NCBI GenBank assembly: GCA_016188065.1
Contig: JACPIN010000020.1
Coordinates: forward strand, 764-64,763
DNA from: Candidatus Woesearchaeota archaeon
GTDB lineage: Archaea > Nanobdellota > Nanobdellia > SCGC-AAA011-G17 > ARS1403
DNA length: 64,000 bases
Direction: 5' to 3'
Shown here: in pieces, positions 1 through 60,021 of the stretch
Layout of the letters: every line of letters begins with the position of its first letter
How positions within the stretch are numbered: the first letter of the stretch is position 1
Notes under the pieces: generated by a model
Told to the model about the DNA's origin: nothing
Seen by the model: the letters and a program-made list of their open reading frames with translations, nothing else
The model's database searches: none
Made by a program: the position numbers and the translations under genes

Positions 1-1143
1 TTATACGAAGGAAAACCGATAGATGGAATAATGGGGGTTAGCTTCAAAAATAAAGAAGGAAAAGCTATTCACAATCCTCAGAGAGAATTAGAGCCTTTAG
101 ATAATTTTCCAAGAATGCCTTATGAATTAATTCCAGAAGAGAAATTAATAAGAAGCGTTGCTGAGATGGATACTAGAGTTATAGATTATTTTTCAAGCCA
201 AGGCTGCCCTTACAGGTGTGAGTTCTGCGCTGACCCAGATGTTTACAAAAGGAGAACCACCCTACATAGTGCTGAAAGAGTTTTGAATGATATACAATTT
301 TTGGTTAATAAGTATAAAATTAACTGCGTTGTCTGCACAGATACTAATTTTTTCATAAATGAAAGAAGGATTCAAGATATTTGCAGAGGCTTGATTGAAA
401 GAGGGATAAAGATTAAATGGGGCAGCTTGAATATCAGAAGTGACCAGTTCTTGAGGTTAAAAGAAGAGACAGTTGAATTGATGGAAAAAGTTCATTTCTA
501 TAGTTTCTTGAATGGAGCTGAATCAGGTGACCAAGAAATTTTGGACTTGATTAAAAAAGATTCCACTGTTGAAAACACAATCAATATGGCCAAGAGGTGC
601 AAGAAGTACGGGTTCAAGGTTTACTTCTCATTCATTATAGGGATGCCATTAATTCCAAATAATGGAAGGACAAGCAAGGATATTGTAAAGCGAGAGTTTG
701 ATGCCCTTGTAAATATTTTAGATAAAATAATATCCATTGAAAAGGGTCATAGTTTTTACTTGTCTATGTATACTCCTTATCCTGGCTCTCCATTGTATCA
801 GAATGCATTGAAACTTGGATTCAAAGATCCTAAGAGTTTAGAGGAATGGGGGGATTTTACATTCGATAAAATAAATGTTCCTTGGATTCCAAAAGGTTAT
901 ATCCAGAAAGTTGACCAGCTTGAAGAATTATTTCTACCTTTCTTAACTGGGCATATCTATAAGAAATTCAAGAACTATGGAATGCTTGGAAAGATTGCTA
1001 AGCCTGGAGCCCAGTTAATTGGAAAAATTGTAGAATACAGGTGGAAAAATAGAAAATTTGGTTATCCAATTGAATATCACTTGTTAAAAAATGGGAAGAG
1101 ATTGATGAGGGCTTTGTATCCTAGAATCGGTTATAAGGATTAG
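1..1143 (+). CDS. B12-binding (class B) radical SAM protein, 5' partial
   Basis: Reading frame is open to the window start. CPYRCEFC is a CxxxCxxC radical-SAM cluster only ~60 aa into the visible part, so the cobalamin-binding N-domain must lie upstream. Confidence 0.7.
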   Translation, partial: LYEGKPIDGIMGVSFKNKEGKAIHNPQRELEPLDNFPRMPYELIPEEKLIRSVAEMDTRVIDYFSSQGCPYRCEFCADPDVYKRRTTLHSAERVLNDIQFLVNKYKINCVVCTDTNFFINERRIQDICRGLIERGIKIKWGSLNIRSDQFLRLKEETVELMEKVHFYSFLNGAESGDQEILDLIKKDSTVENTINMAKRCKKYGFKVYFSFIIGMPLIPNNGRTSKDIVKREFDALVNILDKIISIEKGHSFYLSMYTPYPGSPLYQNALKLGFKDPKSLEEWGDFTFDKINVPWIPKGYIQKVDQLEELFLPFLTGHIYKKFKNYGMLGKIAKPGAQLIGKIVEYRWKNRKFGYPIEYHLLKNGKRLMRALYPRIGYKD

Positions 1144-2230: not shown

Positions 2231-4102
2231 ATGGTAGGAATTACTGGATATCTTGGAATCAAAGATAAAACCTTGTTGAATAAAATGATAGATTCCTTGA
2301 GATATACTAACAAAGAATTGTCAGATATTTATGGAAGCAGAGAGATATCCATTTCAAGAGTACATCATGGAATTATTGACTCTGAAAAACAACCTATATT
2401 CAACGAGGATAAATCTATTTTTATTGTGATGGAAGGAGAGGTATTTGATTATGAAAATGAAAAAAATGACCTCATTAAAAAAGGCCATAAGTTTAAGCTA
2501 AAAAATAATAGTGCTGAGTTTTGCTTACATCTCTATGAAGAATATGGTGATGATACCTTCGAAAAATTAAATGGAAGCTTTTTGATTACTCTATACGATT
2601 TAAAAAATAAAGAACTTATCTTTGTTACTGATAAACTTGGCTGGTATCCCTTTTTTTATTACATTAACGATAAGAAATTTATTTTTGGTACACAGATGTC
2701 AAGCATATTGCAAGATGGTGAATTTGAAAGGCATTTAAATATAGATTCAATTCATGAATTTTTCACTTTTCAAAGGGTCTTCGGCGATAACACTTTCTAT
2801 AAGAATATTAAGATTTCCTTGCCAGCTACAATTATGAAGATTAAAAGTTATAAAATAAAAACAAAATGCTATTGGAAGATGGATTTTACCTCAGAAGAAC
2901 ATGATGAAGATTACTGGGCTGATGAGTTAGCAAGTGCCTTAAAAAAGGCTATAAATATTAGATTGAATAAAAGAGACTATAAGTTTGGAATCCTTCTAGG
3001 CGGAGGGCTGGATGCTAGAGCTATACTTGCTGGGGCAGATAAAAATGTTACTTGTTTTACTTATGGCACTTATAAAAATAATGAATTTACTTTTGGGGAT
3101 ATGACTGCAAAAATAAAGAAGTCAAAACATGTTTTCTTTCAAATTGATAAGAATCATTTTGCTAATTTGGCTGATGTTTCTATCCGTATTGGTGATGGCA
3201 TGCATCCTTTTATCCATGCTCCATGGATAGGATATTTTGAGGAGATTAAAAAAGATTGCAATGTGTTACTGCATGGGTTTTCTTTTGACATTCTTTTTAG
3301 GGGATTGTTTGTCCCCATGGAGAGGAGATCATTTTTAGGAAGAAATGTTTCAATCAGAAGTATTGATTACACATGGGCTGAAAATAATTTCCTTGATAAG
3401 CTAATTAAAGAAGCGAATTATGGACTGCAAGGCTTAAATCCAGCTCAACTATTTAAAGATAAAAACAATGTCAATAATAATTTGAAGGAAAACTTTACAA
3501 AAGTCCTGGAATCTAGGGAAAATGGCATTAAAAATTTATATGACAGAGTGGATCATTTCTGGATCGACTCACTTTATAGATATCCTTCATTCTTGAATGT
3601 ATCTTGTATAAGGCCTTTTGTCGATGAGATGCTTGTAACTATAGACCCATTATTACTTGATGTCTATCTTAGAATGCCGCCAGAAGCAAGAATCAATGAC
3701 AGAATTTGGAAAAAAACTCTGATAAAATTAAACAAAGACGTTGGAGAAGTTCCTGATGCTAAAACCGGGTTTTCCCCATTGCTGCCAAAATCACTAGAAC
3801 ATGGAATTGTGCTTTCAAGAAAATTGGCTCACAAAATTATGTATAAGATTTTAAATAAGATTAATCCAAAACAAAGAAAAGAGTCTAACTTTGCCGAGTT
3901 AATAAGATATAATAAAAAATTTAGAGAGAAGATGTACAACATAATCAATGATCCAAAAGCAATTAACCCAAAGATATTTGATGTTGAAAATATTAATAAA
4001 ATGTTTAAGCTGCATATTAATGGAAAAGAGGATCATAATACTGCTTTCTTTATTGCATTACTAACATTCGGGAGATGGCATAAAATTTACGGACCTACTT
4101 GA
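2231..4102 (+). CDS. asparagine synthetase B-like protein lacking the N-terminal Cys nucleophile
   Basis: N-domain aligns with AsnB (MVGITGY vs MCGIAG; HLYEEYGDD; KLGWYPFFYY). PP-loop region is LGGGLDARAI versus SGGLDS. An in-frame stop lies immediately upstream of the Met-Val start. Confidence 0.65.
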   Translation: MVGITGYLGIKDKTLLNKMIDSLRYTNKELSDIYGSREISISRVHHGIIDSEKQPIFNEDKSIFIVMEGEVFDYENEKNDLIKKGHKFKLKNNSAEFCLHLYEEYGDDTFEKLNGSFLITLYDLKNKELIFVTDKLGWYPFFYYINDKKFIFGTQMSSILQDGEFERHLNIDSIHEFFTFQRVFGDNTFYKNIKISLPATIMKIKSYKIKTKCYWKMDFTSEEHDEDYWADELASALKKAINIRLNKRDYKFGILLGGGLDARAILAGADKNVTCFTYGTYKNNEFTFGDMTAKIKKSKHVFFQIDKNHFANLADVSIRIGDGMHPFIHAPWIGYFEEIKKDCNVLLHGFSFDILFRGLFVPMERRSFLGRNVSIRSIDYTWAENNFLDKLIKEANYGLQGLNPAQLFKDKNNVNNNLKENFTKVLESRENGIKNLYDRVDHFWIDSLYRYPSFLNVSCIRPFVDEMLVTIDPLLLDVYLRMPPEARINDRIWKKTLIKLNKDVGEVPDAKTGFSPLLPKSLEHGIVLSRKLAHKIMYKILNKINPKQRKESNFAELIRYNKKFREKMYNIINDPKAINPKIFDVENINKMFKLHINGKEDHNTAFFIALLTFGRWHKIYGPT

Positions 4103-4882
4103 AATAAGGCTTGAACAGAAAACTCCATGGCTTTATACCGGCTTTAACTTCTCTATACATAATTATTGCTGTCAATATAGGCAAAATTGCACCATAGATA
4201 ATCAGGATTATATCCAGTGAGCTGAAGATTGCTGCTATCAAGAAGAGATATCTTGAATTAGCACCTTGTATTACTGTAAAAATTAATCTGAATAAATTTC
4301 TTAAAAATGATTTTTTATATTGTGTATGTTTTTCATTGGGTATTGGAACGGATTTATCTATTGATATGTGCGGTGATTTTCCTTGTGCACATTCTACAAG
4401 TTTAGAAAATATTACCTCATGTTTTAGGTACTGGATTATTCCATTATAGAAACTGAAGAATATAGCAGAGATTCCAAAAATTAAAACCAGTATATCAAAG
4501 TGATTTTGCATTACTCCAATTGTGACTCCGGCAAATACCAGTGGCATAATGATTACTTCTGATAAAGAGTCCAAAAACAAACCATCTAGTGAAGTAGCTT
4601 TTTTATATCTTGCCAATTCTCCATCTACTTGATCAATAACGATCATCAACTCGAATGGGACTATTGCAAGGATTGAAAATAGATAATTATTCATTGCAAA
4701 GAAAAAAGCTACTAATACATTAAAAAATAATAAAGAGAGCGTTACTTGATTGGGGGTTATTTGTGTGTTTATAAGTAATCGCGTTATATATATTGAAGAA
4801 CTTTTCCCCTTAAAGTACCAAAATCGTGCATTTCTGAAGGTTTCTGACAGATCTCTCTTAGCTCTTTTATTGTTGGAGACAT
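4095..4882 (-). CDS. CDP-alcohol phosphatidyltransferase family protein, interrupted by a frameshift near 4803-4810
   Basis: DG-x2-AR-x8-G-x3-D-x3-E motif (DGELARYKKATSLDGLFLDSLSE). The upstream open frame encodes the family-typical ITPNQVTL N-terminus without an ATG. An ATG at 4882 in the adjacent frame (MSPTIKEL...LRGK) joins after a 1-nt shift in a GGGGAAAA run. Confidence 0.6.
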
Positions 4883-4933
4883 GGAATAAACTTAGCCGTT
4901 AGTTATTTAAGATTTGCTAATGAAGAATAAAAG

Positions 4934-5884
4934 ATGGTAGATAGTATTATCTGCAATAGCATAAAAAACCTTGAGTTGAAAGAAGGGAGGGGAACTGCGA
5001 TTGCTCACCATGGCGAGATCCTGCAAGGAATGTTTGAAGACGCAGGAAAATTATTCAGGGGATCAGTTACTTTACCATGCCACATCTTTGGATCACAAGC
5101 TAGTTTTTTCCCTAAAAAAAATTCTTCTAAAATTGTTGTTGATCCTGAATGGAAAATAAAATCTAAAAAAGCTGCGGAATTAACCTTAAAATCTTTGGGT
5201 GTTGAGGACATAGGAGGTAGATTAATGATTAAAAGCAATACCCCTTTGAGACTAGGTCTTGGCTCTTCCACTAGTGATGTAAATGCTTCTATTTTGTCTG
5301 TTGCAAATTCCCTTGGTGTTGTGTTATCTCCTGTTACAATTGCAAGCATCGCTGTCAAGGCTGAAATAGCAACTGATGCTATAATATTCGGTGAGAGAGC
5401 TGTTCTCTTCGGACATAGAGATGGAAAAGTATTTGAAGACCTTGGTGGCAATTTCCCTCCAATGGAGGTTCTTGGCTTTAATTCCGATCCAGATGGAGAA
5501 GGAGTTGACACTTTAGCTTTCCCTCCTGCAGAATATTCCTGGCAGGAAATTGAAATGCTTAGACCTTTGGTAGGTTTGATGAGAAGGGCCATTTATGAAC
5601 AGAACCCTAAGCTTATCGGAAGAGTTTCAATTGCAAGTACAGAGATTAATCAAAGATTTTTGCCTACCAAAAATTTTGATAGTATAAAAAATATTGTTCG
5701 AAAAGTTAATGCTGCCGGCTTGCAAGCCTCGCATAGTGGCATAGTTGTAGGGATTATATTTGATTCTAATGACGTTGATAAAGAGCAAAAAATTCATAGG
5801 AGCCTTTCTTTATTAAAAGACATTGGCTATGATAATGTGTGGAGATTCAGAACAGATAAATTACATCTGGAGGCAGGCTTATGA
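4934..5884 (+). CDS. GHMP-family kinase
   Basis: PLRLGLGSSTSDVNAS matches the GHMP ATP-binding motif PxGSGLGSSAA. The length of 316 aa fits the family. Confidence 0.65.
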   Translation: MVDSIICNSIKNLELKEGRGTAIAHHGEILQGMFEDAGKLFRGSVTLPCHIFGSQASFFPKKNSSKIVVDPEWKIKSKKAAELTLKSLGVEDIGGRLMIKSNTPLRLGLGSSTSDVNASILSVANSLGVVLSPVTIASIAVKAEIATDAIIFGERAVLFGHRDGKVFEDLGGNFPPMEVLGFNSDPDGEGVDTLAFPPAEYSWQEIEMLRPLVGLMRRAIYEQNPKLIGRVSIASTEINQRFLPTKNFDSIKNIVRKVNAAGLQASHSGIVVGIIFDSNDVDKEQKIHRSLSLLKDIGYDNVWRFRTDKLHLEAGL

Positions 5885-6921
5885 AAAACAGATTAGCTTA
5901 CGATAATATTATTGATTTTGTAGAGCTGCCAAAAATAATTAAATTGGATGATAACCTGTATGGCAGTGCCTTCTTCCTGATGAAATTAATGCCTGCGAGG
6001 TTTATATTAGAGAGAGCTGAAAGGGAAGGCATTTTGAAACCTGGATCTTTGGTTGCTGAAACTACATCCGGAACATTCGGCCTGGCTTTAGCTATGCTAT
6101 GTTCTCTAAAAAGTTACAAATTTATTATGGTAACTGATCCTGTTGTCGATGATGCTTTAAAAAGAAGAATCGAAGATTTAGGCGCTGTTGTTGAGATTGT
6201 TCAAAAACCTGCCGATATCGGTGGTTATCAGCGATCCAGGCTTGATAAATTAGTGGAGATTTTAAAAAAAAATTCTGGAAGCTTTTGCCCTAGCCAATAT
6301 GAAAACACAAACAATCCTGCAGGATATTCAAAGTTTGCTGAAATATTAACTGAATCAGTAGGACATATAGATTGTTTAGTCGGCACTGTCGGTTCTGGTG
6401 GATCTGTCTGCGGTACCAGTAAATATTTAAGACAATTGTTCCCAGATCTGCATGTTGTCGGAGTTGATACCTTGGGAAGCGTAATTTTTGGACAACCTGA
6501 TCAGAAAAGATTGTTGCGAGGTCTTGGAAATAGTTTATGGCCTGATAATGTCGATCATACTGTTTTTAATGAGGTTCATTGGGTAAGCGCTGCTGAGGCT
6601 TTCTTGGCTACTAGAATGCTGCATAGAAAACATGCTTTATTTATGGGAGGAACAAGTGGCGCTGCATATATGGTTGCAAAATGGTGGGCAGAAAAAAATC
6701 CTTGTAAAATCGTTGTATGTATCTTTCCAGATGAAGGATATAGGTATCAAGACACAATATACAATGATAGATGGCTTGAAGAAAATAATGTAAAACTTGA
6801 CAAACTTCCTAATAACCCCATTGAAGTAAAAAATCCGATAGATGCGAAAGCTCAATGGTCTTGTATTGGCTGGAATAGAAGAGATTATGAGAATGTCGTT
6901 GGCAAACATAAAGGAACATGA
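5881..6921 (+). CDS. PLP-dependent fold-type II enzyme, cysteine synthase / SbnA-like
   Basis: AETTSGTFGLALAMLCSLKSYKFIMVTDP and GTVGSGGSVCGT glycine-rich PLP-phosphate loop. Its ATGA start overlaps the upstream kinase stop. Confidence 0.65.
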   Translation: MKNRLAYDNIIDFVELPKIIKLDDNLYGSAFFLMKLMPARFILERAEREGILKPGSLVAETTSGTFGLALAMLCSLKSYKFIMVTDPVVDDALKRRIEDLGAVVEIVQKPADIGGYQRSRLDKLVEILKKNSGSFCPSQYENTNNPAGYSKFAEILTESVGHIDCLVGTVGSGGSVCGTSKYLRQLFPDLHVVGVDTLGSVIFGQPDQKRLLRGLGNSLWPDNVDHTVFNEVHWVSAAEAFLATRMLHRKHALFMGGTSGAAYMVAKWWAEKNPCKIVVCIFPDEGYRYQDTIYNDRWLEENNVKLDKLPNNPIEVKNPIDAKAQWSCIGWNRRDYENVVGKHKGT

Positions 6922-8120
6922 AACCCTATTTTGTTTTTATTGAAAGCAACACTTCTGGAACTGGAAGAATATTCGCTCAAGCTGCTAAAGATAAAGGATT
7001 CAATCCAGTGTTGTTAGCTGGAGACATTTCTAGGTACCATTATGCTAAAGAAGATAACTTAGAGTTTATAAAGGTCAATACTCAAAATGAAACAGATTTA
7101 CTCAACACTTGTAAGAAATTAAAAAATGTTGCAGGTGTTCTTTCCAGCTCAGAATACTTTATTGAAATGGCGGCGATTATTTCTAAAAAATTAAATTTGC
7201 CTGGGGTTAATCCTGATGCAATTAAAAATTGCAGGGACAAAAGCCTTCAGAGAATTATTTTACAAGAAAATAATATCGGAATCCCAAAATTTTATGTCTG
7301 TGAATCTGAAAAAGAATCTGCCGCTGCAAGTAAAAGCATTGGGTACCCTGTTATTGTAAAACCAGTTATGGGTACTGGAAGCGTCGGAGTCAAACTCTGC
7401 ATAAATATTAATGAGGTAGCAGAACATACTAAGCATCTCCTTAAGCAAAAAACAAATGAAAGAGGAATGCCTGTACCACAAAAAGTTCTTGTCGAGGAAT
7501 TTTTAGACGGTGAGGAATACTCTGTTGAAACTTTTGGAGGAAAAATTATCGGGATTACTAAAAAATATGTTGGATCTTTGCCGAACTTTGTTGAGATAGG
7601 CCATGATTTTCCTGCAGATATAGATAGAGATAAAACAAAAAAAATCAATAAAACTACATTGGATGCCCTGGATGCTGTTGGGCTTGACTGTGGACCTGGA
7701 CACGTCGAAGTAAAGTTCGTTTTTGGCGAAGCAAAAATTGTTGAGATCAATCCTAGACTTGCAGGAGGGTTTATCCCTAAACTTGTTGACTATGCTTTTG
7801 GTGTAAACTTAATTAATGAAACGATTAAACTTACCTCTGGAGAAAGAGTAAATTTGGAATCTACAAGAAAGGATTATTCGTCAATCAGATTCATACTCTC
7901 TCCACGCAAGGGCTTATTCTCTAAAGTTGAAGGCTTAGATAACCTTAAAAACAAAAACATAGTTGAGACTTGTATATATAAGAATGAAGGCAATGAAATT
8001 TCAGTCAATGGTGACTTTAGGGATAGGATTGGGCATATAATCTCTTATTCAAAAAATAAGTCAGAGACCATTAGTGCAGCAAATTCTGCTATTAAAAATT
8101 TGAGGGTTATTGTAAAATGA
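6918..8120 (+). CDS. ATP-grasp domain ligase
   Basis: YPVIVKPVMGTGSVGV, EEFLDGEEYSVE and GPGHVEVKF...EINPRLAGG are ATP-grasp motifs. Confidence 0.7.
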   Translation: MKPYFVFIESNTSGTGRIFAQAAKDKGFNPVLLAGDISRYHYAKEDNLEFIKVNTQNETDLLNTCKKLKNVAGVLSSSEYFIEMAAIISKKLNLPGVNPDAIKNCRDKSLQRIILQENNIGIPKFYVCESEKESAAASKSIGYPVIVKPVMGTGSVGVKLCININEVAEHTKHLLKQKTNERGMPVPQKVLVEEFLDGEEYSVETFGGKIIGITKKYVGSLPNFVEIGHDFPADIDRDKTKKINKTTLDALDAVGLDCGPGHVEVKFVFGEAKIVEINPRLAGGFIPKLVDYAFGVNLINETIKLTSGERVNLESTRKDYSSIRFILSPRKGLFSKVEGLDNLKNKNIVETCIYKNEGNEISVNGDFRDRIGHIISYSKNKSETISAANSAIKNLRVIVK

Positions 8121-9568
8121 AAGACACAGGAAGAATTACGAAAGGATTAGATCCAAAGATTGTGGGGATATTATATGGAGATAATCTTGATGAGTTAATT
8201 GATGGTGAAATGGTGTATTCCACTCAAGTTGATAGGGCTCATTTAGTTATGCTAACTAAGGAAAAAATAGTGGATAAAAACAAAGTGAAATTGCTGCTAA
8301 ATGAAATAAATAATCTAAGAGAAAATGAATTTGGACCATTAAGAGGCAAGACTCCACATAGGGGAATATACCTTCTCTATGAAGATTATTTAATCGAGAA
8401 GCTTGGCGAGGATATAGGGGGGGTATTGCAAACCGCAAGGTCAAGAAATGATCTTAATGCAACGATATTGAAATTAAGGCTGAGAGGACATTATAATTCT
8501 ATCATGATGAATTTATTAGAATTACAAAAAATTTTGATTGAAAAATCAAACCAGTTTAAAGATGTAATCATGCCGGCATATACTCACTTTCAGGCAGCAG
8601 TTCCAATAACTTATGGACATTACCTTGCTGGAATCGCTAGTGCAATAGACCGAGATATAGAGAACATAATAGCCAGTAGCAAGGGATTGCAATATTGCCC
8701 CCTCGGAGCTGGCGCGGTTGGCGGGACTTCTTTTCCTATAGACTCTAAATTAACTGCAAAATTGCTTGGCTTCTTTTATGAAGTGGAAAATTCTGTGGAT
8801 GCTGTGGCTTCCAGGGATCTTGTATTGAGATTACTATCAGCGACGTCAATTGCAGGAATCACGATAAGCAGATTAGCAACAGATTATTTACTATGGACCA
8901 CTTCAGAGTTTAATTTTCTATCATTTCCAGATAAACTTGTTGGGTCTAGTTCTATGATGCCTAACAAAAGGAATATCTTTATCCTTGAAAACATCCAAGG
9001 TAAATCCGGTTTTGCTTTGGGACAGTTCATCTCTTCTTCAAATGCAATGCAATGCAAGCCTTACACTAACTCCATTTCTGTTGGTACTGAGGGCGTTAAA
9101 AGTATCTGGAAACCTTTAGAAGAAAGTATTGCAGCAATAATCTTGATGACAAATATGGTAGAGAATGCAACTCCTAATAAAGAAAATATGTTAAGAAAAT
9201 CACTTGATGGGTATACTTTTGCAACTGAAACTGCTAATGAGCTTGTAAGGCAACATGGAATGTCATTCAGATCTGCCCATTATCTTGTTGGAAAAATTGT
9301 TAAAGAATCAATTGAAAACAAAGAACCCTTTAAAGATGCTGCTAAAAGAATATTAAATGAATCAAACAAAAACCTTTCATTTGATAATTTTGAAATGGAA
9401 AGGATTGTAATGAATTCTAGGTTTGGTGGAGGTCCCGGTAGATCTTCATTAAAAATTCTTAATAAAAAACTAATAAGATATAAAAGACATTTTGAAAAAG
9501 ATTTAAAATATTGGGCTAAGTCTGATAAGGTCTTAGAGAGAGAAATAAAAAAAATCTGTGGGTCTTGA
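8117..9568 (+). CDS. fumarate-lyase superfamily enzyme, argininosuccinate/adenylosuccinate lyase-like
   Basis: Superfamily signature GSSSMMPNKRN (GSxxMxxKxN). ARSRNDLNAT resembles the ArgH GRSRNDQ motif. Confidence 0.7.
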   Translation: MKDTGRITKGLDPKIVGILYGDNLDELIDGEMVYSTQVDRAHLVMLTKEKIVDKNKVKLLLNEINNLRENEFGPLRGKTPHRGIYLLYEDYLIEKLGEDIGGVLQTARSRNDLNATILKLRLRGHYNSIMMNLLELQKILIEKSNQFKDVIMPAYTHFQAAVPITYGHYLAGIASAIDRDIENIIASSKGLQYCPLGAGAVGGTSFPIDSKLTAKLLGFFYEVENSVDAVASRDLVLRLLSATSIAGITISRLATDYLLWTTSEFNFLSFPDKLVGSSSMMPNKRNIFILENIQGKSGFALGQFISSSNAMQCKPYTNSISVGTEGVKSIWKPLEESIAAIILMTNMVENATPNKENMLRKSLDGYTFATETANELVRQHGMSFRSAHYLVGKIVKESIENKEPFKDAAKRILNESNKNLSFDNFEMERIVMNSRFGGGPGRSSLKILNKKLIRYKRHFEKDLKYWAKSDKVLEREIKKICGS

Positions 9569-11125
9569 TTATAGTTTTTTTAGAATACGATTCATCTTCG
9601 TAAAATTTATCCCCGACTTTTCTTGTATAAGTTTAATAACCATAATGTCCTCTCGTTCAAATGCCTTTGTTATTATAAGTAATAAGATGTAGATAGTTAC
9701 CAATGCCAAAAAACCAAATGGTGCGGCAATAATATTTGGAAGCAATAACAGATACTTTCTAAGATAATACACTGATACGGTTGCAATAACTATTGAAGAA
9801 AAAACCTTTATATACTTTGCATTGAAAGGGGTTATACCTAGATAATATTTAACCTCTATCATCAACAAAATAGAGCGGGTTATAAAAGCAGTGGCTGTAG
9901 CAAGTGCTGCACCATTTATTCCATATATTGGAATCAAATAGATATTTAATATTAGATTGATAATCATCATGATCATTGAATTCAGAAATATGGTCTTAGT
10001 CTTCTTGTGGATCATAAGGATATCTTGAGTACTGCTCATGGCATATCCTACAAAATAACCGAGCGATAAAATTATTAATGAAGCCGACGCTTCGACATAT
10101 GCCCTGCCAAACAATATTGAGAGCACTTGGCTAGAAAATAGACAGAAAAAACTCAATAAGATGATGTTTATAGAGAAGATCCATTTAGTTATTATGATAT
10201 AGATGGATTTAAAAACTTCATTTTTAGATTGAGAATATATCTCTGTTAATACTGGAATAAATAAAGTGAGCATTATCAGGGGAACCATAAACATAAGCCC
10301 CGAGGTTGGTAAAGCAGCATTGTATAATCCTGTTTCTTGTGGAGATGTAAAATAACCTAACATTAGTGTATCTGTCCATAGGATCACTGAAAATATCAAT
10401 GTGCTGAAAAGCAACGGCAGGGAGTAAACCAGCAGTTCTTTATTGAGGGATAATGAAACTATCTCTTCGTCCTTTTGTTTTAATACCTTTGAATTTAAGA
10501 AATAAAAAGCAGCTATAAAACTTAGAAAAATTGAAATTATATAAGCGACTGTTAATCCAAATAACCTATAACCTAAAAAGGTAAAGATAAACGAGAGACT
10601 AACTTTTGTTACATTTTCTATTATATGTTTGGAATAGACTTCATATTCAACTTTTTGAAGTGCCCTGACTATTTTAAAAAATATTTCCCTTAGTGAATTA
10701 AATGGAATTATCACAGCAAATAATTTTATAATTATATTTAATTCTTGATCGTGAAAAAGATTTATTGCTAGCCACTTTGAAAAAATAAATACTATTATTG
10801 AAAGGAAAATACTTATTATGGAAACTATCTTCACTGAAAATCCTAGCATACTTTTTATTCTTGCATAATCTTCTTTTCCCTTGTAAAAAGAGACGTACCT
10901 CAACAATCCATCTCCTAAACCTATTAATGAAACAGAGGTTAGTAGACCCAATATTGCTATTCCAATGGATAACAAACCATATTCATAGATTCCTGCTCTT
11001 GCAGCGATTATCCTATAGATATAACCAAATATTTTCGAGAAGATTATTCCAAATGCTATTATTTTTGTCCCTTTTAGGATAGTTTTAAGAGGATTGTTTA
11101 TCTCTGATTCTGACATTAGTTTCAA
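9569..11125 (-). CDS. Wzx-type oligosaccharide flippase (MOP superfamily polysaccharide biosynthesis protein)
   Basis: 518 aa with about 14 predicted TM helices and a hydrophobic composition typical of PST/Wzx proteins. Confidence 0.65.
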   Translation of the reverse strand: MKLMSESEINNPLKTILKGTKIIAFGIIFSKIFGYIYRIIAARAGIYEYGLLSIGIAILGLLTSVSLIGLGDGLLRYVSFYKGKEDYARIKSMLGFSVKIVSIISIFLSIIVFIFSKWLAINLFHDQELNIIIKLFAVIIPFNSLREIFFKIVRALQKVEYEVYSKHIIENVTKVSLSFIFTFLGYRLFGLTVAYIISIFLSFIAAFYFLNSKVLKQKDEEIVSLSLNKELLVYSLPLLFSTLIFSVILWTDTLMLGYFTSPQETGLYNAALPTSGLMFMVPLIMLTLFIPVLTEIYSQSKNEVFKSIYIIITKWIFSINIILLSFFCLFSSQVLSILFGRAYVEASASLIILSLGYFVGYAMSSTQDILMIHKKTKTIFLNSMIMMIINLILNIYLIPIYGINGAALATATAFITRSILLMIEVKYYLGITPFNAKYIKVFSSIVIATVSVYYLRKYLLLLPNIIAAPFGFLALVTIYILLLIITKAFEREDIMVIKLIQEKSGINFTKMNRILKKL

Positions 11126-11196: not shown

Positions 11197-12498
11197 ATGA
11201 AAAAAGTGTTTGTTGGGATGAGCGGAGATGTATTTCATCATGGACATATCAATATTATAGAAACTGCTAGAAAGCTAGGAGATGTTACTGTAGGATTAAT
11301 GACCGATGAGGGAATTGTTAGCTATAAACGTCCTCCATTATTAAATTATGATCAGAGAAAAAAAATTATTGAGAACATTAAAGGTGTTAGTAAAGTTATT
11401 CCGCAAGACGGCCTTAATGATTATATTAGAATTATACGACAGCTGAAACCAGATTACGTTGTTCATGGAACTGACTGGAGAGAAGGCATTCAGAAGAGTA
11501 CAAGAGAAAAAGTAATTGAAGTCTTGAAGGAGGTTGGTGGAGAATTAATTGAGCCAGAATATACAAAGGATATCTCTTCTACAGCATTAGTAAATGAATT
11601 GCTTGAGCTTGGAACAACCCCAGATGTTCGATTAAAAAAATTGAGAAGATTAATCAAGTTGAAACCTATTGTCAGACTCCTTGAAGTCCATAATGGATTA
11701 ACCGGAAGAATTGTTGAAAAAACTAGAGTGGATTTAGATGGAGAGATTCGGGAATTCGACGGTATGTGGATAAGCAGCTTGACCGACTCCATTTCTAAAG
11801 GCAAGCCAGACATAGAATACGTTGATTTTACTTCAAGAAACCAGACAATTGACCAGATATGTGATGTTACAACCAAACCTATAATCGTCGATGGAGACAC
11901 TGGAGGAATGGCTGAGCATTTTTCCTATGCTGTTAAAACACTTGAAAGACTCGGTGTATCTGCAGTTATTATCGAGGACAAAATAGGCCTAAAAAGAAAT
12001 TCATTATTTGGAGCGGATGCTAACCAAACACAGGATAGTATAGAAAATTTTTCTAATAAAATCTCTGCAGGAAAAAGATCCCAAGTTACAGAAGAATTTA
12101 TGATCATTGCAAGAATTGAAAGTCTTATTTTAAGAAAGGGAATTGATAATGCATTGGAAAGAGCTTATGCTTATATTCAGGCTGGTGCTGATGGAATTAT
12201 GATACATAGCAAGGAGAAAAGCCCTGATGAAATTGTAACTTTTTGCAAGGCTTACCGACATTTTGATAAAAAAGTTCCTTTAATTGTCGTGCCTACAACC
12301 TACAATCAGATTACAGAGCAAGAATTAATAGACATTGGTGTTAATATTGTAATTTATGCAAATCACTTATTGAGAAGTGCATATCCCCCTATGCTAAAAA
12401 CTGCTGAAACAATTTTAAAAAATGGAAGATCTTTTGAAGCTGAAAAATTATGTTTACCTATAAATGAAATATTAACACTAATACCCGGAGGAAAATAA
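11197..12498 (+). CDS. pepM: bifunctional cytidylyltransferase / phosphoenolpyruvate phosphomutase (Fom1-like CyTase-PepM fusion)
   Basis: N-terminal HxGH nucleotidyltransferase (VFHHGHINIIETARKLGD, TagD/CCT-like). C-terminal PEP-mutase fold with the PepM-diagnostic EDKIGLKRNS (EDK-x5-NS), and LLEVHNGLTGRIVEK. Confidence 0.85.
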   Translation: MKKVFVGMSGDVFHHGHINIIETARKLGDVTVGLMTDEGIVSYKRPPLLNYDQRKKIIENIKGVSKVIPQDGLNDYIRIIRQLKPDYVVHGTDWREGIQKSTREKVIEVLKEVGGELIEPEYTKDISSTALVNELLELGTTPDVRLKKLRRLIKLKPIVRLLEVHNGLTGRIVEKTRVDLDGEIREFDGMWISSLTDSISKGKPDIEYVDFTSRNQTIDQICDVTTKPIIVDGDTGGMAEHFSYAVKTLERLGVSAVIIEDKIGLKRNSLFGADANQTQDSIENFSNKISAGKRSQVTEEFMIIARIESLILRKGIDNALERAYAYIQAGADGIMIHSKEKSPDEIVTFCKAYRHFDKKVPLIVVPTTYNQITEQELIDIGVNIVIYANHLLRSAYPPMLKTAETILKNGRSFEAEKLCLPINEILTLIPGGK

Positions 12499-12499
12499 C

Positions 12500-13372
12500 G
12501 TGGCTAGATTTTTGAATGAAATAGTTGATGATGAAAAATTAGCTTGGACAAGAGAAACATTTTCTTTAAACTCTGATGGAATCTATAATTTATTTAAACC
12601 TGGAATTTCTGGGTTACCTGAAAATGTTAAAAAATTCCGTGAAAACGTCTTAGAAAATGGATATGGCTTTGGGATTATTAAAGGGATGAGTCATTTTAAC
12701 AGAGAGATACAGAGAGAGATATACCTCTCTACTGCTAGACTTTTAGGGAACCCCATTGTGCAGAATATTTCTGGAGAGACGGTGGTTGATGTATTTGATA
12801 AAGGCAAAACTATGGAGACTGGTGGGAGGTATCATGAAACTAGACAAGGTGGAGCATTGCATACAGATAGCCCGCAATATAAAGATATTCCAGATTATTT
12901 AGGATTGTTATGTTTGCATCCTGCAAAAGCAGGGGGGGAGAGCAAATTTATCAGCGCGTATAGTTTACATAATCGGCTTTTGAAGGAAAACTCTGAACTT
13001 CTTAAGAGGTTATATCAGCCATTTCATTTCGATAAAAGAGGACATGAAAAACTTGGAGAAAGCCCGACAACATTTGAGCCAGTATTTAGATATGATAGTA
13101 AGGGATTACATTTTAGATATCTAGGAAATTACATCCGATCAGGACATGAAAGAATTTCAGTTCCCCTTTCTGATATTGAAAGAAAGGCACTTGAAGCTGT
13201 TGATAGGTTATTAGAGGATGAAAACCTTATTGTTACTGCAGAGATGGGATCTGGAGATATGCAGTTTTTGAATAACCATCGAGTTGTCCATGGAAGAACC
13301 GACTTTGTAGATTATGAAGATCTTGATAAGAAAAGATTGATGCTAAGAACTTGGTTACGAAAATATGTCTAA
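12500..13372 (+). CDS. TauD/TfdA-family Fe(II)/2-oxoglutarate dioxygenase (paralog 1)
   Basis: HTDSP (HxD) plus distal NHRVVHGRT (second His and Arg). Paralogous to 14537..15544. GTG start per ORF track. Confidence 0.65.
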   Translation: MARFLNEIVDDEKLAWTRETFSLNSDGIYNLFKPGISGLPENVKKFRENVLENGYGFGIIKGMSHFNREIQREIYLSTARLLGNPIVQNISGETVVDVFDKGKTMETGGRYHETRQGGALHTDSPQYKDIPDYLGLLCLHPAKAGGESKFISAYSLHNRLLKENSELLKRLYQPFHFDKRGHEKLGESPTTFEPVFRYDSKGLHFRYLGNYIRSGHERISVPLSDIERKALEAVDRLLEDENLIVTAEMGSGDMQFLNNHRVVHGRTDFVDYEDLDKKRLMLRTWLRKYV

Positions 13373-14120
13373 AGAAATTGTTGGTTTTATTCTCGCAGCA
13401 GGATGCAGCAAAAGGCTTAAAGAATTAACAATAGATAAGCCAAAATCTTTTTTAGAGATCAATAAAAAAAGACTTATTGATTATCATTTGGATTATTTAG
13501 CTGAATTCGGGATTAAAGAAGCGTGCCTAGTAGTTGGCTTCTTAAAAGATTTATTTAAAGAGAATATAGGCCATGATCATAAAGGCGTTAAAATTAATTA
13601 CATTGAAAATGATTTGTACGAGACAACCGGACATAGTTATAGCGTCCTCTTAGGAAAAGAATTATTTCTAGAGAAAGACATCCTACTTATTCATGCAGAT
13701 GTCTTCTATGACCGTTCAATTCTTGAAATGTTGATTAAAGAAAGTTTGGATAATGTAGTGCTTGTTGACGATCATTATAAAGTTCTAACTGGAGATGAAT
13801 TTGTTGTTACTGGAATGGATAATCTTGTTTCTGGAATAGGTCCTAATAAAACAGCGAATATTCAAGGAGAGTTTCTTGGATTGAGCAAACTGAGCTCTAA
13901 TTTTATGACTGAATTTTGCGATTATATGGAAGGCTTTTTTAGTGTTAGAGGAAATAAATTCAATTATGAAATAGTGATGGATGAATTCTTAGGAACAAGT
14001 TCTTCTCCACTTTATTATAAAAAAATTGGCAGAAGCAGATGGATTAATCTTAATTACAAAGAGGATTATGAGGAAGCCAAAAGAATTGCTGTAGAAAATT
14101 ATTCTTTTTTTAAAAAATAA
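13365..14120 (+). CDS. LicC/GlmU-like nucleotidyltransferase (sugar- or alcohol-phosphate cytidylyltransferase family)
   Basis: N-terminal GFILAAGCSKRL (GxGxR loop) and Rossmann-like NTP-transferase layout. 251 aa. Confidence 0.7.
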   Translation: MSKEIVGFILAAGCSKRLKELTIDKPKSFLEINKKRLIDYHLDYLAEFGIKEACLVVGFLKDLFKENIGHDHKGVKINYIENDLYETTGHSYSVLLGKELFLEKDILLIHADVFYDRSILEMLIKESLDNVVLVDDHYKVLTGDEFVVTGMDNLVSGIGPNKTANIQGEFLGLSKLSSNFMTEFCDYMEGFFSVRGNKFNYEIVMDEFLGTSSSPLYYKKIGRSRWINLNYKEDYEEAKRIAVENYSFFKK

Positions 14121-14488
14121 TCACATTCCATGCAACTGGATTTAATACATTGCTCTTTCATATTAAAACCATTGTTCCTTCCCCATTCTTTAATTTGAAG
14201 TAGAATATTTACTAACTCTTGTCCTTTATCTGTAAACCGATAATAGATTTTTCCTGAATTAATTCTTTGAATTATGCTAAATTTAATAAGTTCTTTTATA
14301 GTTAAAGATAGCAAAGAAGAGTTTATAATTTTGTCTGTTCTTTTTTTAAGCTGATTAAAAGTAAGGTTGTTATTTTTAAATTCCAATAATATGGGGATAG
14401 TCCATCTTCTACCTAGGAAATATTCAAGCTCTAGCATTTGACAATGAATATTTTCTTTTAACATAGATACAAAAATTTGTACTTTCAA
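14099..14488 (-). CDS. HxlR-type winged-helix transcriptional regulator
   Basis: GRRWTIPILLEF matches the HxlR core (GxxWTLLIL). Small and Cys-rich at the C-terminus. Confidence 0.65.
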   Translation of the reverse strand: MKVQIFVSMLKENIHCQMLELEYFLGRRWTIPILLEFKNNNLTFNQLKKRTDKIINSSLLSLTIKELIKFSIIQRINSGKIYYRFTDKGQELVNILLQIKEWGRNNGFNMKEQCIKSSCMECDYFLKKE

Positions 14489-14536
14489 TTTAAATTACTT
14501 GTGGTTTTTGATATTAAAAATTAAGGAGGCTTAAAA

Positions 14537-15544
14537 ATGCAAAATATCCCTCAAAGTTTTCCAACTGAAAAAGTTGAGAATAAACGATCCTGGAATAGAA
14601 ATAGTGACTTCAGTCATATAGTGCATGTTTTTTCAAAAGAAACTCAAGATGAAATAAGAGACTATTTAGATATGAGCGTTACAAAAAAAGTTTTAGGCAG
14701 AGAAGAGATTGAATCTGTTGACTATAACCCTAATGAATTATCTAATCTTGTTTCGGAAATAGAATCTGTAAGACCCCAAGTAGATACTGGAACGGGATTC
14801 GTTGTTTTCCCAGATTGGGAAGGCTTGACAATTCATCAAAGCCGAGTTGCATCTTGGTTAGTGGATAACACCTTTGGTAAATGTAAAGAGCAGGATGATA
14901 GGGGGAGTCGTTTGATAGAGATATATAATCAATCAGATACTCTAAGTATGAAAACTGGTGCTAGATACCATGTAACTAGAGAAGGAAATTCTCCACATAC
15001 AGATGGTCCACAGATCATTGATGACCCGGATTATTTGTGTCTACGCTGTGTTAATGATGCTTGGGTAGGCGGAGAAAATATTTTGGTAACCGGAGAATCT
15101 ATATATAATAATCTTCTTGAAAACGCTTCCGATTTAATTGGAGTATTATCTGATAATTTTTACTTCCATTGTAGGGGTGTTAAAAATGCTGAAGGAAGAG
15201 AATATTTTCAAGCACCCATCTTGTCTATGGATAAAGAAGGAATAAGATTACGTTTTTTAGATCATTACATTAGAGAAGGGCATAAATTTGCTAGAACGCC
15301 TTTGACGTATAAACAGGAAAAGGCTATACAGTATATAAATAGTTTATTTGAACAGTCTGATTTACAATTTAGAGCCAGATTAGAGCCTGGACAACAAGTA
15401 GTATTTGCAAATAAAAGGATGTTGCATGCAAGAACGGAATTTGTGGACTTAAACCCTGCAAATGAACACTATGATCCTAGTCAACTAGACAACATAAAAA
15501 CTGCAAATAGATTGATGGATAGAACCTGGACCTATAAAAGATGA
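14537..15544 (+). CDS. TauD/TfdA-family Fe(II)/2-oxoglutarate dioxygenase (paralog 2)
   Basis: ARYHVTREGNSPHTDGPQIIDDPDYLCL aligns with GRYHETRQGGALHTDSPQYKDIPDYLGL of paralog 1. Distal HART motif. A GGAGG ribosome-binding site lies 7 nt upstream. Confidence 0.65.
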   Translation: MQNIPQSFPTEKVENKRSWNRNSDFSHIVHVFSKETQDEIRDYLDMSVTKKVLGREEIESVDYNPNELSNLVSEIESVRPQVDTGTGFVVFPDWEGLTIHQSRVASWLVDNTFGKCKEQDDRGSRLIEIYNQSDTLSMKTGARYHVTREGNSPHTDGPQIIDDPDYLCLRCVNDAWVGGENILVTGESIYNNLLENASDLIGVLSDNFYFHCRGVKNAEGREYFQAPILSMDKEGIRLRFLDHYIREGHKFARTPLTYKQEKAIQYINSLFEQSDLQFRARLEPGQQVVFANKRMLHARTEFVDLNPANEHYDPSQLDNIKTANRLMDRTWTYKR

Positions 15545-15587
15545 ATCTTCCATTAGGCTTTTAATCTTTTTTGTTCTTTATTTTTAT

Positions 15588-16715
15588 ATGATTTCATGCG
15601 AAAAACTATTCAATGTATTTAAGAAACAGGGACTAGAATTTTTTACAGGTGTTCCAGACTCTTTCTTAAAAGATTTTTGCTCTTATATTAATGATCATGC
15701 TAAATCTGAAAACCATATCATTACTGCAAATGAAGGTGGAGCAATTGCATTAGTTACTGGTTATCATCTTGCAACTGGAAACATTGGAGTTGCATATATG
15801 CAGAATTCTGGAGAGGGAAACGCGGTTAATCCTTTAGTCTCACTTGCTGATCCTGAAGTTTATAGCATCCCCATGTTACTATTAATTGGATGGAGGGGAG
15901 AACCAGGGATAAAAGATGAGCCGCAACATGTTAAACAGGGAAAGATTACCATTGATTTGTTGAATGTTCTTGGCATACAGTATGAAATACTTCCGGATTC
16001 TATCAATGATGCTGAGAAATCAGTAGAAAATATAGTTAATAAGATAAAGGAAAAAAATACACCATGTGCACTTGTTATTCGTAAAGATTTATTTGAGCCA
16101 TATGGGTCCAAAAATAAAATAAAATCCCTTTATATTTTATCGAGAGAAAAGGCGATTCAAATCATTGTAGATAATTTGAATCTTGGCGATGTCGTCGTTT
16201 CTACTACTGGTAAGATTTCTAGAGAATTGTTTGAATATAGAGAGAAAATAAAGCAAGGCCATAATCGAGATTTTTTAATTGTTGGATCTATGGGACATTG
16301 TTCGCAGATTGCCTTGGGAATTGCATTATCTAAACCAAATAGACAGATATACTGTTTAGATGGAGATGGAGCAGCCATAATGCACATGGGATCTTTAGCA
16401 ATTATAGGCTCTAAAAACATTAAAAATTTCAAACATATTATTTTAAACAATGGTGCACATGAATCTGTAGGTGGACAGCCAACCGCAGGATTCAATATTG
16501 ACTTCTGCTCTATTGCTAAAGCTTGCGGATATAAAACTGTGTTGAAAGCTGTAGATGAAAATGAGATTAAAAATAGAACTGTGTCTTTAAAATCCTGTAG
16601 CGGACCTGCACTTTTAGAGATTAGAATTAATGCTTTTTCTAGGAAAGAATTGAGCAGGCCAACGGATTCCCCTTTAGAAAATAAAAAGAAGTTTATGAAG
16701 TTTTTACAAGAATGA
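15588..16715 (+). CDS. ppd: phosphonopyruvate decarboxylase (TPP-dependent)
   Basis: N-terminal FFTGVPDSFLKDFC and LLLIGWRGEPGIKDEPQHVKQG are characteristic of Ppd/sulfopyruvate decarboxylase. TPP motif GDGAAIMH...NNGAHESVGGQ. Adjacent to pepM. Confidence 0.85.
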   Translation: MISCEKLFNVFKKQGLEFFTGVPDSFLKDFCSYINDHAKSENHIITANEGGAIALVTGYHLATGNIGVAYMQNSGEGNAVNPLVSLADPEVYSIPMLLLIGWRGEPGIKDEPQHVKQGKITIDLLNVLGIQYEILPDSINDAEKSVENIVNKIKEKNTPCALVIRKDLFEPYGSKNKIKSLYILSREKAIQIIVDNLNLGDVVVSTTGKISRELFEYREKIKQGHNRDFLIVGSMGHCSQIALGIALSKPNRQIYCLDGDGAAIMHMGSLAIIGSKNIKNFKHIILNNGAHESVGGQPTAGFNIDFCSIAKACGYKTVLKAVDENEIKNRTVSLKSCSGPALLEIRINAFSRKELSRPTDSPLENKKKFMKFLQE

Positions 16716-17809
16716 AACAGAAAGAATTCTTCGGATATGGAAGCATTAACAAAATTGCAGGAATTGCCTCTGAATTAGACACTAAAAGAATATTTCTAGT
16801 TACTGGCAGAGATTCTTATGAACATAGTGGTGTTAAAAATTGTTTAGATATGTTGCTCCATCATTATGAAATTAACAGGTTTAATCAATTTTCTTCAAAT
16901 CCTAGACTGGTTGATATAATGAGAGGTTTTGAGCTATTTAAGAAGGAAGATTATGAACTAATTATTGCAGTTGGAGGGGGAAGTGTAATAGATGTTGCCA
17001 AAGCAATTAAGCTGTTTAACTTCAATAAATGTTCTTCAAAAACACCATTAGTTGCAGTACCAACCACCTCTGGAACCGGAAGCGAGGCTACCTATTATAT
17101 TGTCTATTATATTGGCAAAGAAAAACAATCAGAAGGCTTGCCAGAGATAACCTTGCCTGATTACTCCATTTGCGATCCTACTTTTACAATGAATATCCCA
17201 AAAAAAATTGCTGCAGCGACTGGAATGGATGCTTTAGGGCAAGCAATAGAATCTTACTGGAATATTAATTCCACAAAAGAGTCTAAAGAATTTGCAAAGC
17301 AGTCTATTTCTCTTTTAATAGATAATTTGGAAAAATCGGTAGGAAATCCGGATCCAGAATTAAAAGAAAAAGTTATGAGAGCTGCTAATCTTTCTGGAAA
17401 AGCAATAAATATCACAAAGACTACCGCATGCCATTCTATTTCATATCCAATTACTTCTTACTTTCATATCCATCATGGACATGCAGTTGGACTAACATTG
17501 GGAGAAATGCTTGTATACAACTATTATTCTAAGCAGGAATGTGTTGATCAAAGAGGCGAGGATTATCTTAAATCAGCTTTAGAAGAGATTACTGCTTTAA
17601 TCGGCGGAAAAGATGTTATTGAAGCAAGAGATATTCTATATGATCTGATGAAGAATATTGGGCTTGAAACTAAACTGATTGATCTTGGGATAAATAAAGA
17701 GGGAATAGAAGTTATTATAAAACGGGGATTTAATCCTGAAAGGGTAAAGAATAACCCTAGACATCTTGATGAAGATAATCTAAGAGAAATTTTAGAAAGC
17801 ATTTATTAG
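16712..17809 (+). CDS. group III iron-containing alcohol dehydrogenase, probable phosphonoacetaldehyde reductase
   Basis: GGGSVIDVAKAI NAD(P)-binding motif and HIHHGHAVG metal-binding site. ATGA-coupled to ppd, as in characterised HEP-forming pathways. Confidence 0.75.
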   Translation: MKQKEFFGYGSINKIAGIASELDTKRIFLVTGRDSYEHSGVKNCLDMLLHHYEINRFNQFSSNPRLVDIMRGFELFKKEDYELIIAVGGGSVIDVAKAIKLFNFNKCSSKTPLVAVPTTSGTGSEATYYIVYYIGKEKQSEGLPEITLPDYSICDPTFTMNIPKKIAAATGMDALGQAIESYWNINSTKESKEFAKQSISLLIDNLEKSVGNPDPELKEKVMRAANLSGKAINITKTTACHSISYPITSYFHIHHGHAVGLTLGEMLVYNYYSKQECVDQRGEDYLKSALEEITALIGGKDVIEARDILYDLMKNIGLETKLIDLGINKEGIEVIIKRGFNPERVKNNPRHLDEDNLREILESIY

Positions 17810-47034: not shown

Positions 47035-47107
47035 TGGGTCCGCCCAGAATTGAACTGGGGATCTCCGCTACGTCAAAGCGACGTCATAACCACTAGACCA
47101 CGGACCC
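47035..47107 (-). tRNA. tRNA-Val (anticodon GAC)
   Basis: Hand-folded cloverleaf: acceptor GGGTCCG/CGGACCC, anticodon loop TTGACGT, T-arm CCCAG-TTCAATT-CTGGG, discriminator A. No intron. Confidence 0.8.
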
Positions 47108-49978: not shown

Positions 49979-50031
49979 CTATAAATAATAAAATCAAGAA
50001 ATCAATTTTTTAAACATATCTAAAATCTAAT

Positions 50032-50117: not shown

Positions 50118-50151
50118 TTTGAGAAGATTTAGAAAAAGTTTATTTATTAAA

Positions 50152-60002: not shown

Positions 60003-60021
60003 TTTTTTATTCCTCAGTATA

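Follow-up and report, generated by a model that had tools for sequence, protein, structure and literature searches.

Organization of the four-gene block

The DNA analyzed here (the window) is a stretch of 64,000 nt of contig JACPIN010000020.1, positions 764 to 64,763, from an assembly labeled Candidatus Woesearchaeota archaeon (GCA_016188065.1). At positions 4934–9568 of the window, the open reading frame (ORF) listing gives exactly four consecutive genes on the + strand. The first (4934..5884, 316 aa) encodes a GHMP kinase similar to DabA, the second (5881..6921, 346 aa) a DabB-like β-replacement enzyme of the fold-type II class dependent on pyridoxal phosphate (PLP), the third (6918..8120, 400 aa) an ATP-grasp protein of the L-amino-acid-ligase type similar to the N-terminal part of DabC, and the fourth (8117..9568, 483 aa) a protein of the argininosuccinate lyase (ASL) family similar to the C-terminal part of DabC. 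Judging from these sequences, it is quite probable that the genes form a cassette of the dabABC type that makes a 2,3-diamino acid and in which DabC is split in two genes.

All three junctions are 4-nt ATGA overlaps of start and stop codons, at 5881, 6918 and 8117, and are preceded by purine-rich motifs, which are GGAGG-, AAGGA- and GAGGG-like, respectively. A preliminary description of this DNA had listed a kinase, a PLP enzyme, an ATP-grasp protein and a lyase joined in this manner, and the ORFs, the overlaps and the Pfam domains are all as it described them. Two antisense ORFs within the block (5005–5592 and 7292–7750) are taken as spurious. The short stretch between the kinase gene and its divergent upstream neighbor (4893..4933), as read from the sequence, contains an A/T-rich TTATTTAA element about 20 nt ahead of the kinase ATG, which is possibly a candidate archaeal TATA box with a putative promoter function.

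The integrity of the four proteins was examined by comparing them with 70–87 members of their families and counting positions that are conserved in at least 90% of the members. The kinase keeps 50 of 57 such positions, the PLP enzyme 97 of 101, the ATP-grasp protein 80 of 85 and the lyase 105 of 111. Where they depart, the exchanges are conservative ones (A to S, D to N, R to K), which a genome of 33% GC would lead one to expect.

The published Dab pathway

The dabABC operon of Burkholderia thailandensis (E264) makes (2S,3R)-2,3-diaminobutyrate (Dab) (Li et al., 2024, PMC10906522). DabA is a GHMP, PduX-like L-threonine kinase, and DabB is a cysteine-synthase-like PLP enzyme that has been shown biochemically to join L-aspartate to the β-carbon of the phosphorylated substrate (PMC10906522). 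DabC consists of an ATP-grasp N-domain and an ASL-like C-domain, and it converts the aspartate adduct to Dab in vivo, presumably via elimination of fumarate (PMC10906522). In other Dab operons, DabC-N and DabC-C form separate proteins, or DabC-N is fused to the PLP enzyme (PMC10906522). The window block has the same four catalytic modules in one operon, with the same functional order and the same predicted chemistry, although DabC is fused in B. thailandensis and split into two genes here. While B. thailandensis is a bacterium, the window cassette lies on a contig labeled as archaeal, in a glycan/phosphonate locus with no nonribosomal peptide synthetase (NRPS) or monobactam cluster nearby.

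The modules for friulimicin, pacidamycin and napsamycin and the lvdC–E module of a lavendomycin-like cluster also have kinase, cysteine-synthase-like and argininosuccinate-lyase-like genes as in the window; the latter trio has been annotated as a Dab module in a paper of 2026. In these NRPS or peptidyl-nucleoside modules, the ATP-grasp protein either stands alone or forms a fusion with the PLP enzyme, and the product feeds adenylation domains, whereas the window is without NRPS. The chemistry is accordingly not new, since the Dab pathway was published in 2024 and split forms of DabC are known too. What is new is the contig labeled as archaeal, the glycan/CMP-phosphonate setting without NRPS, and an ATP-grasp protein that, by its residues, appears clearly active.

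The kinase

The kinase matches Pfam GHMP_kinases_N. Profiles of homoserine and mevalonate kinases give it only 20–27 bits, far under their cutoffs; the thrB model gives 22.6 bits against a cutoff of 168. A search of the PDB with the kinase found no sequence relative. When its relatives were sought by tblastn against all plasmid records, the sole functionally named matches were the L-threonine kinase gene pduX, from Salmonella and Klebsiella, and, in Listeria, a gene that overlaps cobD. The motifs GE(L/I)xQG, G(L/M)xSSTxD, ExxxD and HSG are common to PduX and the window kinase, although their identity is only about 22–28%. In the alignment, E24, S99, S100, E132, D135 and S253 of PduX, which we take to be functional residues on the basis of mutagenesis work on PduX, are conserved as E28, S111, S112, E144, D148 and S268 of the window kinase; the identity and position of these PduX residues were checked against the annotated PduX sequence. 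The protein is predicted to be a PduX-like L-threonine kinase, which supports the preliminary proposal that it makes an O-phospho-hydroxy-amino acid. PduX functions in the nucleotide-loop pathway of cobalamin and feeds CobD, whereas the window kinase would feed the β-replacement enzyme. Ile270, which occupies the position of PduX Ser255, was considered as a defect and rejected, for this position varies (T, D, S or P) among 70 cassette kinases.

The PLP enzyme

The PLP enzyme matches Pfam PALP, and its homologues at 56–64% identity are plentiful in metagenomes. Its top NCBIfam model is that of the SbnA family (TIGR03945; 234 bits, under the cutoff of 350), and its closest PDB match is SbnA (5D87, E 3e-41), in line with its earlier designation as an SbnA-like β-replacement enzyme. 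K35 aligns with K47 of SbnA and is kept in 79 of 79 family members; it is the predicted lysine of the PLP Schiff base. Neither the cysK model (141.5 bits against a cutoff of 351) nor the cysM model (108.8 against 394) reaches its cutoff. Together with the match to the dabABC pathway, these scores uphold the view that the block is a small-molecule amino-acid module and not housekeeping machinery for cysteine or arginine. On the other hand, the analogy once drawn with the homoserine kinase and threonine synthase of rhizocticin-type phosphonate pathways is not borne out, given the low thrB score of the kinase and the CysK/SbnA type of the PLP enzyme.

The SbnA/SbnB pathway to L-2,3-diaminopropionate (L-Dap), and also SulH/SulG, follow the same logic, in which the amine of an amino acid replaces a group on an O-phospho amino acid. 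SbnA takes L-glutamate, and the adduct is cut oxidatively by the NAD-dependent SbnB, whereas the window PLP enzyme is partnered with a fumarate lyase. A scan of 57 ORFs of the window, each of 150 aa or more, revealed no SbnB-type or OCD-family partner. By analogy, the presence of the lyase and the absence of an SbnB-type partner imply that L-aspartate, not L-glutamate, would be the nucleophile.

The ATP-grasp protein and the lyase

The ATP-grasp protein matches Pfam ATP-grasp_4 and LAL_C2, the C-terminal domain of L-amino-acid ligases, and its closest PDB match is the L-amino acid ligase BL00235 (3VOT). The lyase matches Lyase_1 and ASL_C2. Both proteins match NF002563 (PRK02186), a fused NCBIfam model of 890 positions named ‘argininosuccinate lyase’: the ATP-grasp protein covers 4–395 with 372 bits and the lyase 411–874 with 408 bits. 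The two proteins therefore correspond to the halves of a known fused family in its split form. The ATP-grasp family comprises 704 representative clusters at E values up to 1e-30. When 150 listed representatives and the window protein were sorted by architecture, 122 were stand-alone proteins (the window protein included), 28 were ATP-grasp–lyase fusions, and one was a PLP–ATP-grasp fusion; cluster look-ups of fused representatives gave Tenacibaculum among the sources.

K108, K148, the glycine-rich loop, E204, H262, E264, E276, N278 and R280 of the ATP-grasp protein show no variation across 145 representatives, split and fused alike. The motifs specific to this family, F-I/V-E-S-N-x-S-G-T at the N-terminus and D-F-R-D-R-x-G-H at the C-terminus, are equally conserved. 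Because the catalytic residues and these motifs are both conserved, the alignment favors an active catalyst that has kept a single substrate over a degenerate scaffold. The protein stands between the PLP enzyme and the lyase in the order of the genes and likewise in the two types of fusion, which suggests that it acts on or near the aspartate adduct, or that it physically couples the PLP enzyme and the lyase. The invariance of its catalytic residues would point to a step of Dab synthesis that depends on ATP and has escaped recognition throughout the family, and such strict conservation sharpens the question of what part the ATP-grasp protein plays in the published pathway.

In an alignment to Thermus thermophilus ASL, the lyase keeps TARSRND, YTHFQ and GSSSMMPNKRN. 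It has in common with ArgH the fold, the TARSRND, THxQ and GSSxMPxKxN motifs and the elimination of fumarate from an N-substituted aspartate. Unlike ArgH, it always adjoins, or is fused with, ATP-grasp and PLP genes, and it reaches 488 bits in comparison with cassette-linked lyases but 205 bits with the best solved ArgH. The predicted reaction of the lyase is the release of fumarate from N-(1-amino-1-carboxyprop-2-yl)aspartate, so that the leaving group would be a secondary alkylamine, in contrast to the guanidinium in ArgH.

A simpler explanation would be that a housekeeping cysteine synthase, an argininosuccinate lyase and a homoserine-type kinase are adjacent by happenstance. It might draw on the argH model TIGR00838, with which the lyase scores 310.6 bits and passes the cutoff of 279.5, and on public annotations, which name homologues of the cassette proteins ‘cysteine synthase’ and ‘argH’. 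However, the scores with the CysK, CysM and ThrB models are far under cutoff, the lyase scores higher with NF002563 even though it covers half of this model, the scanned window ORFs include neither argG nor any other arg gene, and the unit is met repeatedly on plasmids and within NRPS clusters (see below), not in core arg or cys operons; such a coincidence is hardly credible. The placement by profile hidden Markov models that the preliminary description proposed thus leaves the PLP enzyme closest to SbnA though below its cutoff, and the lyase above the argH cutoff yet nearer to the fused model. Annotation pipelines generally miss the Dab pathway, and the generic labels ‘cysteine synthase’, ‘argininosuccinate lyase’ and ‘kinase’ can be corrected to a defined pathway.

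Distribution of the cassette

The preliminary description also proposed that co-occurrence of the four genes be looked for in related genomes. Among 87 independent loci fetched from other organisms, all four genes are present in 66, and in 64 they stand in the order kinase, PLP enzyme, ATP-grasp protein and lyase on one strand. The recurrence of this order and strand shows that the arrangement does not arise by chance. The fetched relatives span Acidobacteriota, Actinomycetota, Gemmatimonadota and Pseudomonadota. According to Pfam annotation, NRPS genes lie directly beside the cassette in L007 (Pyrinomonadaceae) and L009, the closest bacterial cassettes found, and an ORF of at least 1000 aa lies within 10 kb of the cassette in 53 of the 87 loci; most of the recurring units have likely NRPS genes as neighbors. 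In bacteria, the cassette also occurs without NRPS, on a plasmid of Azospirillum where only a DMT transporter accompanies it, on a plasmid of Sulfuriferula, and at a locus that holds additional ATP-grasp ligases. The Dab cassette is thus a widely mobile four-gene unit, now found on a contig labeled as archaeal and outside NRPS contexts.

Among at least 532 relatives in species-representative genomes, the best 80 are all bacterial, with at most 48% identity, and none is from Burkholderia. Of all fetched loci, one and the same Pyrinomonadaceae locus gives the top match to three of the proteins (kinase, PLP enzyme and lyase), and it is in the top five for the ATP-grasp protein.

Several loci depart from the common arrangement. 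In L005 and L006, a formyltransferase gene follows the ATP-grasp gene in place of the lyase gene. In L008, two further ATP-grasp ligases, a tRNA-deacylase-like gene and a formyltransferase gene are added. L079 (a metagenome-assembled genome (MAG) of Allosphingosinicella) and L087 (Sphingomonas oligophenolica) have the PLP enzyme, ATP-grasp and lyase genes in this order without the kinase gene, and these cassettes may be of the Dap type. Two radical SAM genes of the window were considered as co-occurring partners of the cassette and rejected, since their counterparts, at 23–27% identity and in two loci each, were taken as generic family similarity.

Proposed pathway and alternatives

In the first step, the PduX-like kinase, by its homology, would phosphorylate L-threonine to O-phospho-L-threonine. 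In the second step, which has been shown for the B. thailandensis homologue, the PLP enzyme would expel phosphate and add the α-amine of L-aspartate to the β-carbon, yielding N-(1-amino-1-carboxyprop-2-yl)aspartate. In the third step, known in vivo for the homologue, the lyase would remove fumarate to give 2,3-diaminobutyrate. The ATP-grasp protein would be the counterpart of the DabC N-domain; as it keeps every catalytic residue, it probably catalyzes an ATP-dependent step, or it might bridge the PLP enzyme and the lyase. Clusters making (2S,3S)-Dab additionally carry a threonine aldolase gene (PMC10906522). Such a gene is not present here, and the product is therefore probably the (2S,3R) isomer.

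DabB and DabC of B. thailandensis also turn O-phosphoserine and aspartate into L-Dap (PMC10906522), and with O-phosphoserine as substrate the PLP enzyme and the lyase of the window would likewise yield L-Dap. The same cassette might then make L-Dap, either because the kinase acts on serine or because the PLP enzyme draws on cellular O-phosphoserine, and the existence of the kinase-less variants in L079 and L087 would fit this. Among the known producers examined, however, the kinase is consistently found in, and exclusive to, Dab producers (PMC10906522, Table 1), and the only functionally annotated plasmid relatives of the window kinase are PduX-type threonine kinases, whose aligned residues it keeps. 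L-Dap as the product is thus rather unlikely.

The preliminary description saw in the ATP-grasp protein and the lyase a couple like PurC/PurB or ArgG/ArgH, which ligates aspartate and then eliminates fumarate. The net logic holds, in that aspartate gives the nitrogen and fumarate leaves. The C–N bond, however, is made by an ATP-dependent ligase in PurC/PurB and ArgG/ArgH but by PLP-dependent β-replacement on a phosphorylated substrate in the dab homologue, where the PLP enzyme and not the ATP-grasp protein attaches aspartate (PMC10906522). The comparison with those couples also fails in that the ATP-grasp protein here is of the L-amino-acid-ligase type. A related scheme would let the PLP enzyme use another nucleophile, while the ATP-grasp protein ligates aspartate to a carboxylate or carbonyl group on a different intermediate from which the lyase removes fumarate, so that a precursor of the glycan or the phosphonate is aminated or amidated. 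ATP-grasp–lyase fusions, which are common (28 of the 150 listed representatives), fit two consecutive steps, and the catalytic residues of the ATP-grasp protein are invariant with no function given to it in published work. Nevertheless, this scheme is improbable: the characterized PLP enzyme makes the lyase substrate from aspartate without any ATP-grasp protein; the ATP-grasp protein is not homologous to PurC, PurA or ArgG; and the four-gene unit feeds NRPS lines in bacteria, so the chemistry is not specific to glycans or phosphonates.

Neighboring glycan and phosphonate genes

The cassette is surrounded by genes for glycosyltransferases, Wzx, PMT-like proteins, sugar dehydratases and a C-methyltransferase. 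Upstream on the + strand, 2231..4102 encodes a Cys-less AsnB-like synthetase of 623 aa (GATase_7 and Asn_synthase). A gene of the CDP-alcohol phosphotransferase family (4095..4892, − strand; CDP-OH_P_transf) is divergent from the cassette. On the other side, a convergent gene for a Wzx/MATE-like polysaccharide flippase (9569..11125, − strand; Polysacc_synt and MatE) abuts the stop codon of the lyase gene. It is followed by a phosphonate module (11197–17809, + strand), which was recognized by Pfam and PDB matches and begins with the phosphoenolpyruvate (PEP) mutase gene at 11197, 1.6 kb after the cassette. Both the AsnB-like gene and the phosphonate genes were thus found near the cassette, as first described.

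The phosphonate module encodes a Fom1-like fusion of cytidylyltransferase and PEP mutase, whose N-domain matches the cytidylyltransferase of Fom1 (5X3D, E 3e-44), as well as phosphonopyruvate decarboxylase, an Fe-type alcohol dehydrogenase, a nucleotidyltransferase, an FrbJ-like TauD protein (5EQN, E 5e-28) and a second TauD protein. It resembles the early parts of the fosfomycin and FR-900098 pathways. This suggests that the module leads to CMP-activated derivatives of hydroxyethylphosphonate, which the CDP-alcohol transferase could transfer.

The AsnB-like protein starts with MVGITG and not with MCGI, and is thus without the catalytic Cys2 nucleophile. Among 120 listed homologues, about 115 are of full length (at least 560 aa), and MCGI is found in only two of these, the rest starting with MS, MP, MA or MV followed by GI. 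Homologues lie in Wzx/Wzy/glycosyltransferase loci, one of which has an Asp/Glu racemase gene and another a UDP-ManNAc dehydrogenase gene. This Cys-less family appears to be uncharacterized. Since a Cys-less enzyme could use, in place of ammonia derived from glutamine, another amine for coupling to a carboxylate, the AsnB-like protein is a candidate that could join some amine, for instance the diamino acid, to a carboxylate of a glycan by an amide bond.

From the gene neighborhood only, the diamino acid would most likely be supplied as a substituent of the surface glycoconjugate that the surrounding genes encode. It is tentatively proposed, with considerable doubt, that this DPANN (Woesearchaeota) archaeon decorates a surface glycoconjugate, or the adjacent phosphonate-bearing glycan or lipid, with a 2,3-diamino acid made by a Dab cassette of bacterial derivation, and that the AsnB-like ligase may attach it. 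If so, a cationic non-proteinogenic amino acid would join the known glycan substituents, on the surface of a host-dependent archaeon, and this would be the first use of the Dab pathway in a glycoconjugate and the first in Archaea, as far as could be found.

Several points weigh against the assignment to the Dab pathway or against this use of the product. The likeness to DabA, DabB and DabC of B. thailandensis comes from architecture, the fused-family model and synteny, not from direct alignment. DabC was not amenable to study in vitro, and its ATP-grasp domain was given no role (PMC10906522). No NRPS domains were found in the 57 scanned window ORFs, and no other obvious consumer of a free diamino acid is evident in the 64-kb window. 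A literature search found no paper linking 2,3-diaminobutyrate to a polysaccharide. The other 23 proteins of the first 31.5 kb of the window have no real counterpart near the cassette in the other loci. In the AsnB-like protein, the PP-loop reads GGGLDA, while it is SGGLDS in 90 homologues. The CDP-alcohol phosphotransferase gene, when aligned with L001, L002 and L004, three further assemblies from the same organism, shows a 10-bp deletion (‘aaaaacctat’) near 4797, which frameshifts its first approximately 28 codons; the assembly may be wrong here, or the gene may be a variant within the population or a pseudogene.

The ORF that opens the window (31–1143, + strand) is the C-terminal part of a B12-binding radical SAM gene of 528 aa. 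In L098 (1–12449), the region upstream of this gene encodes a ferredoxin, a threonine-synthase-like PLP enzyme, a methyltransferase, a second AsnB homologue, a GT4 protein and a PMT_2 protein; the threonine-synthase-like enzyme is unrelated to the PLP enzyme of the cassette.

Host and origin of the cassette

Proteins identical to the ATP-grasp and AsnB-like proteins of the window are labeled Candidatus Woesearchaeota archaeon at NCBI, and the window also encodes eS1, an archaeal/eukaryotic-type uS15, a protein with an archaeal S-layer domain and a DHH-CID protein. The cassette region has the same gene arrangement in assemblies from four sequencing runs, at 99.8–99.97% nucleotide identity. A relative from another study, L097, at 89% nucleotide identity, keeps the CDP-alcohol transferase gene on the − strand followed by the kinase, PLP and ATP-grasp genes. 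A metagenome scan for close relatives gave only three loci with at most 45% identity, and hence the conservation of the context in the archaeal lineage rests on L097 and L098.

The cassette might not be truly archaeal, or might not be functional, if the MAG contig is chimeric or the genes are a decaying remnant of horizontal acquisition. The exclusively bacterial sources of the best 80 relatives and the frameshift in the neighboring CDP-alcohol phosphotransferase gene would fit such an origin. Independent Logan contigs (L001, 38.6 kb; L101) end or start near 39.4 kb of the window, and L001, which bears the cassette, stops short of the archaeal marker genes. The linkage of the cassette to the ribosomal protein genes rests on the MAG contig itself for this reason, and none of the Logan contigs supplied a second assembly reaching from the glycan/cassette region across to the genes for the S-layer and ribosomal proteins. 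The arrangement recurs, however, in the four runs and in L097, the window carries the archaeal marker genes mentioned above, identical proteins bear the Woesearchaeota label, and the four proteins keep about 88–96% of the conserved positions of their families, including all catalytic residues. The GC content at third codon positions of the cassette is 0.27–0.28, equal to that of its neighbors, and no signal of recent transfer was found in its base composition. A chimera or remnant is thus very improbable. The simplest reading is that the cassette was probably acquired from bacteria as a block in an old transfer.

Some other features of the same contig were noted. Two genes on the − strand encode a RelA/SpoT-domain protein (50863–51924), a possible small alarmone synthetase, and a Fic-domain protein (60987–61901). 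tRNA genes at 50031–50118 and 60021–60112 (− strand; 88 and 92 nt) were called tRNA-Phe by ARAGORN, one with the anticodon ‘aaa’; their lengths suggest intron-containing archaeal tRNAs that were misread. A B12-binding radical SAM enzyme is seemingly split between 34983–35783 and 35808–36455 (+ strand). The former ORF has the B12-binding domain and positions 3–67 of the radical SAM profile, and the latter has positions 84–165 of this profile; the gene may be frameshifted or may be a pseudogene. Six small paralogues, each of about 230–260 aa and with weak Anp1/GT2 matches (42954–43730, 47107–47856, 47829–48509, 54625–55368, 55370–56074 and 56053–56751, all on the − strand), surround the S-layer gene and the genes for ribosomal proteins, some of them in tandem.

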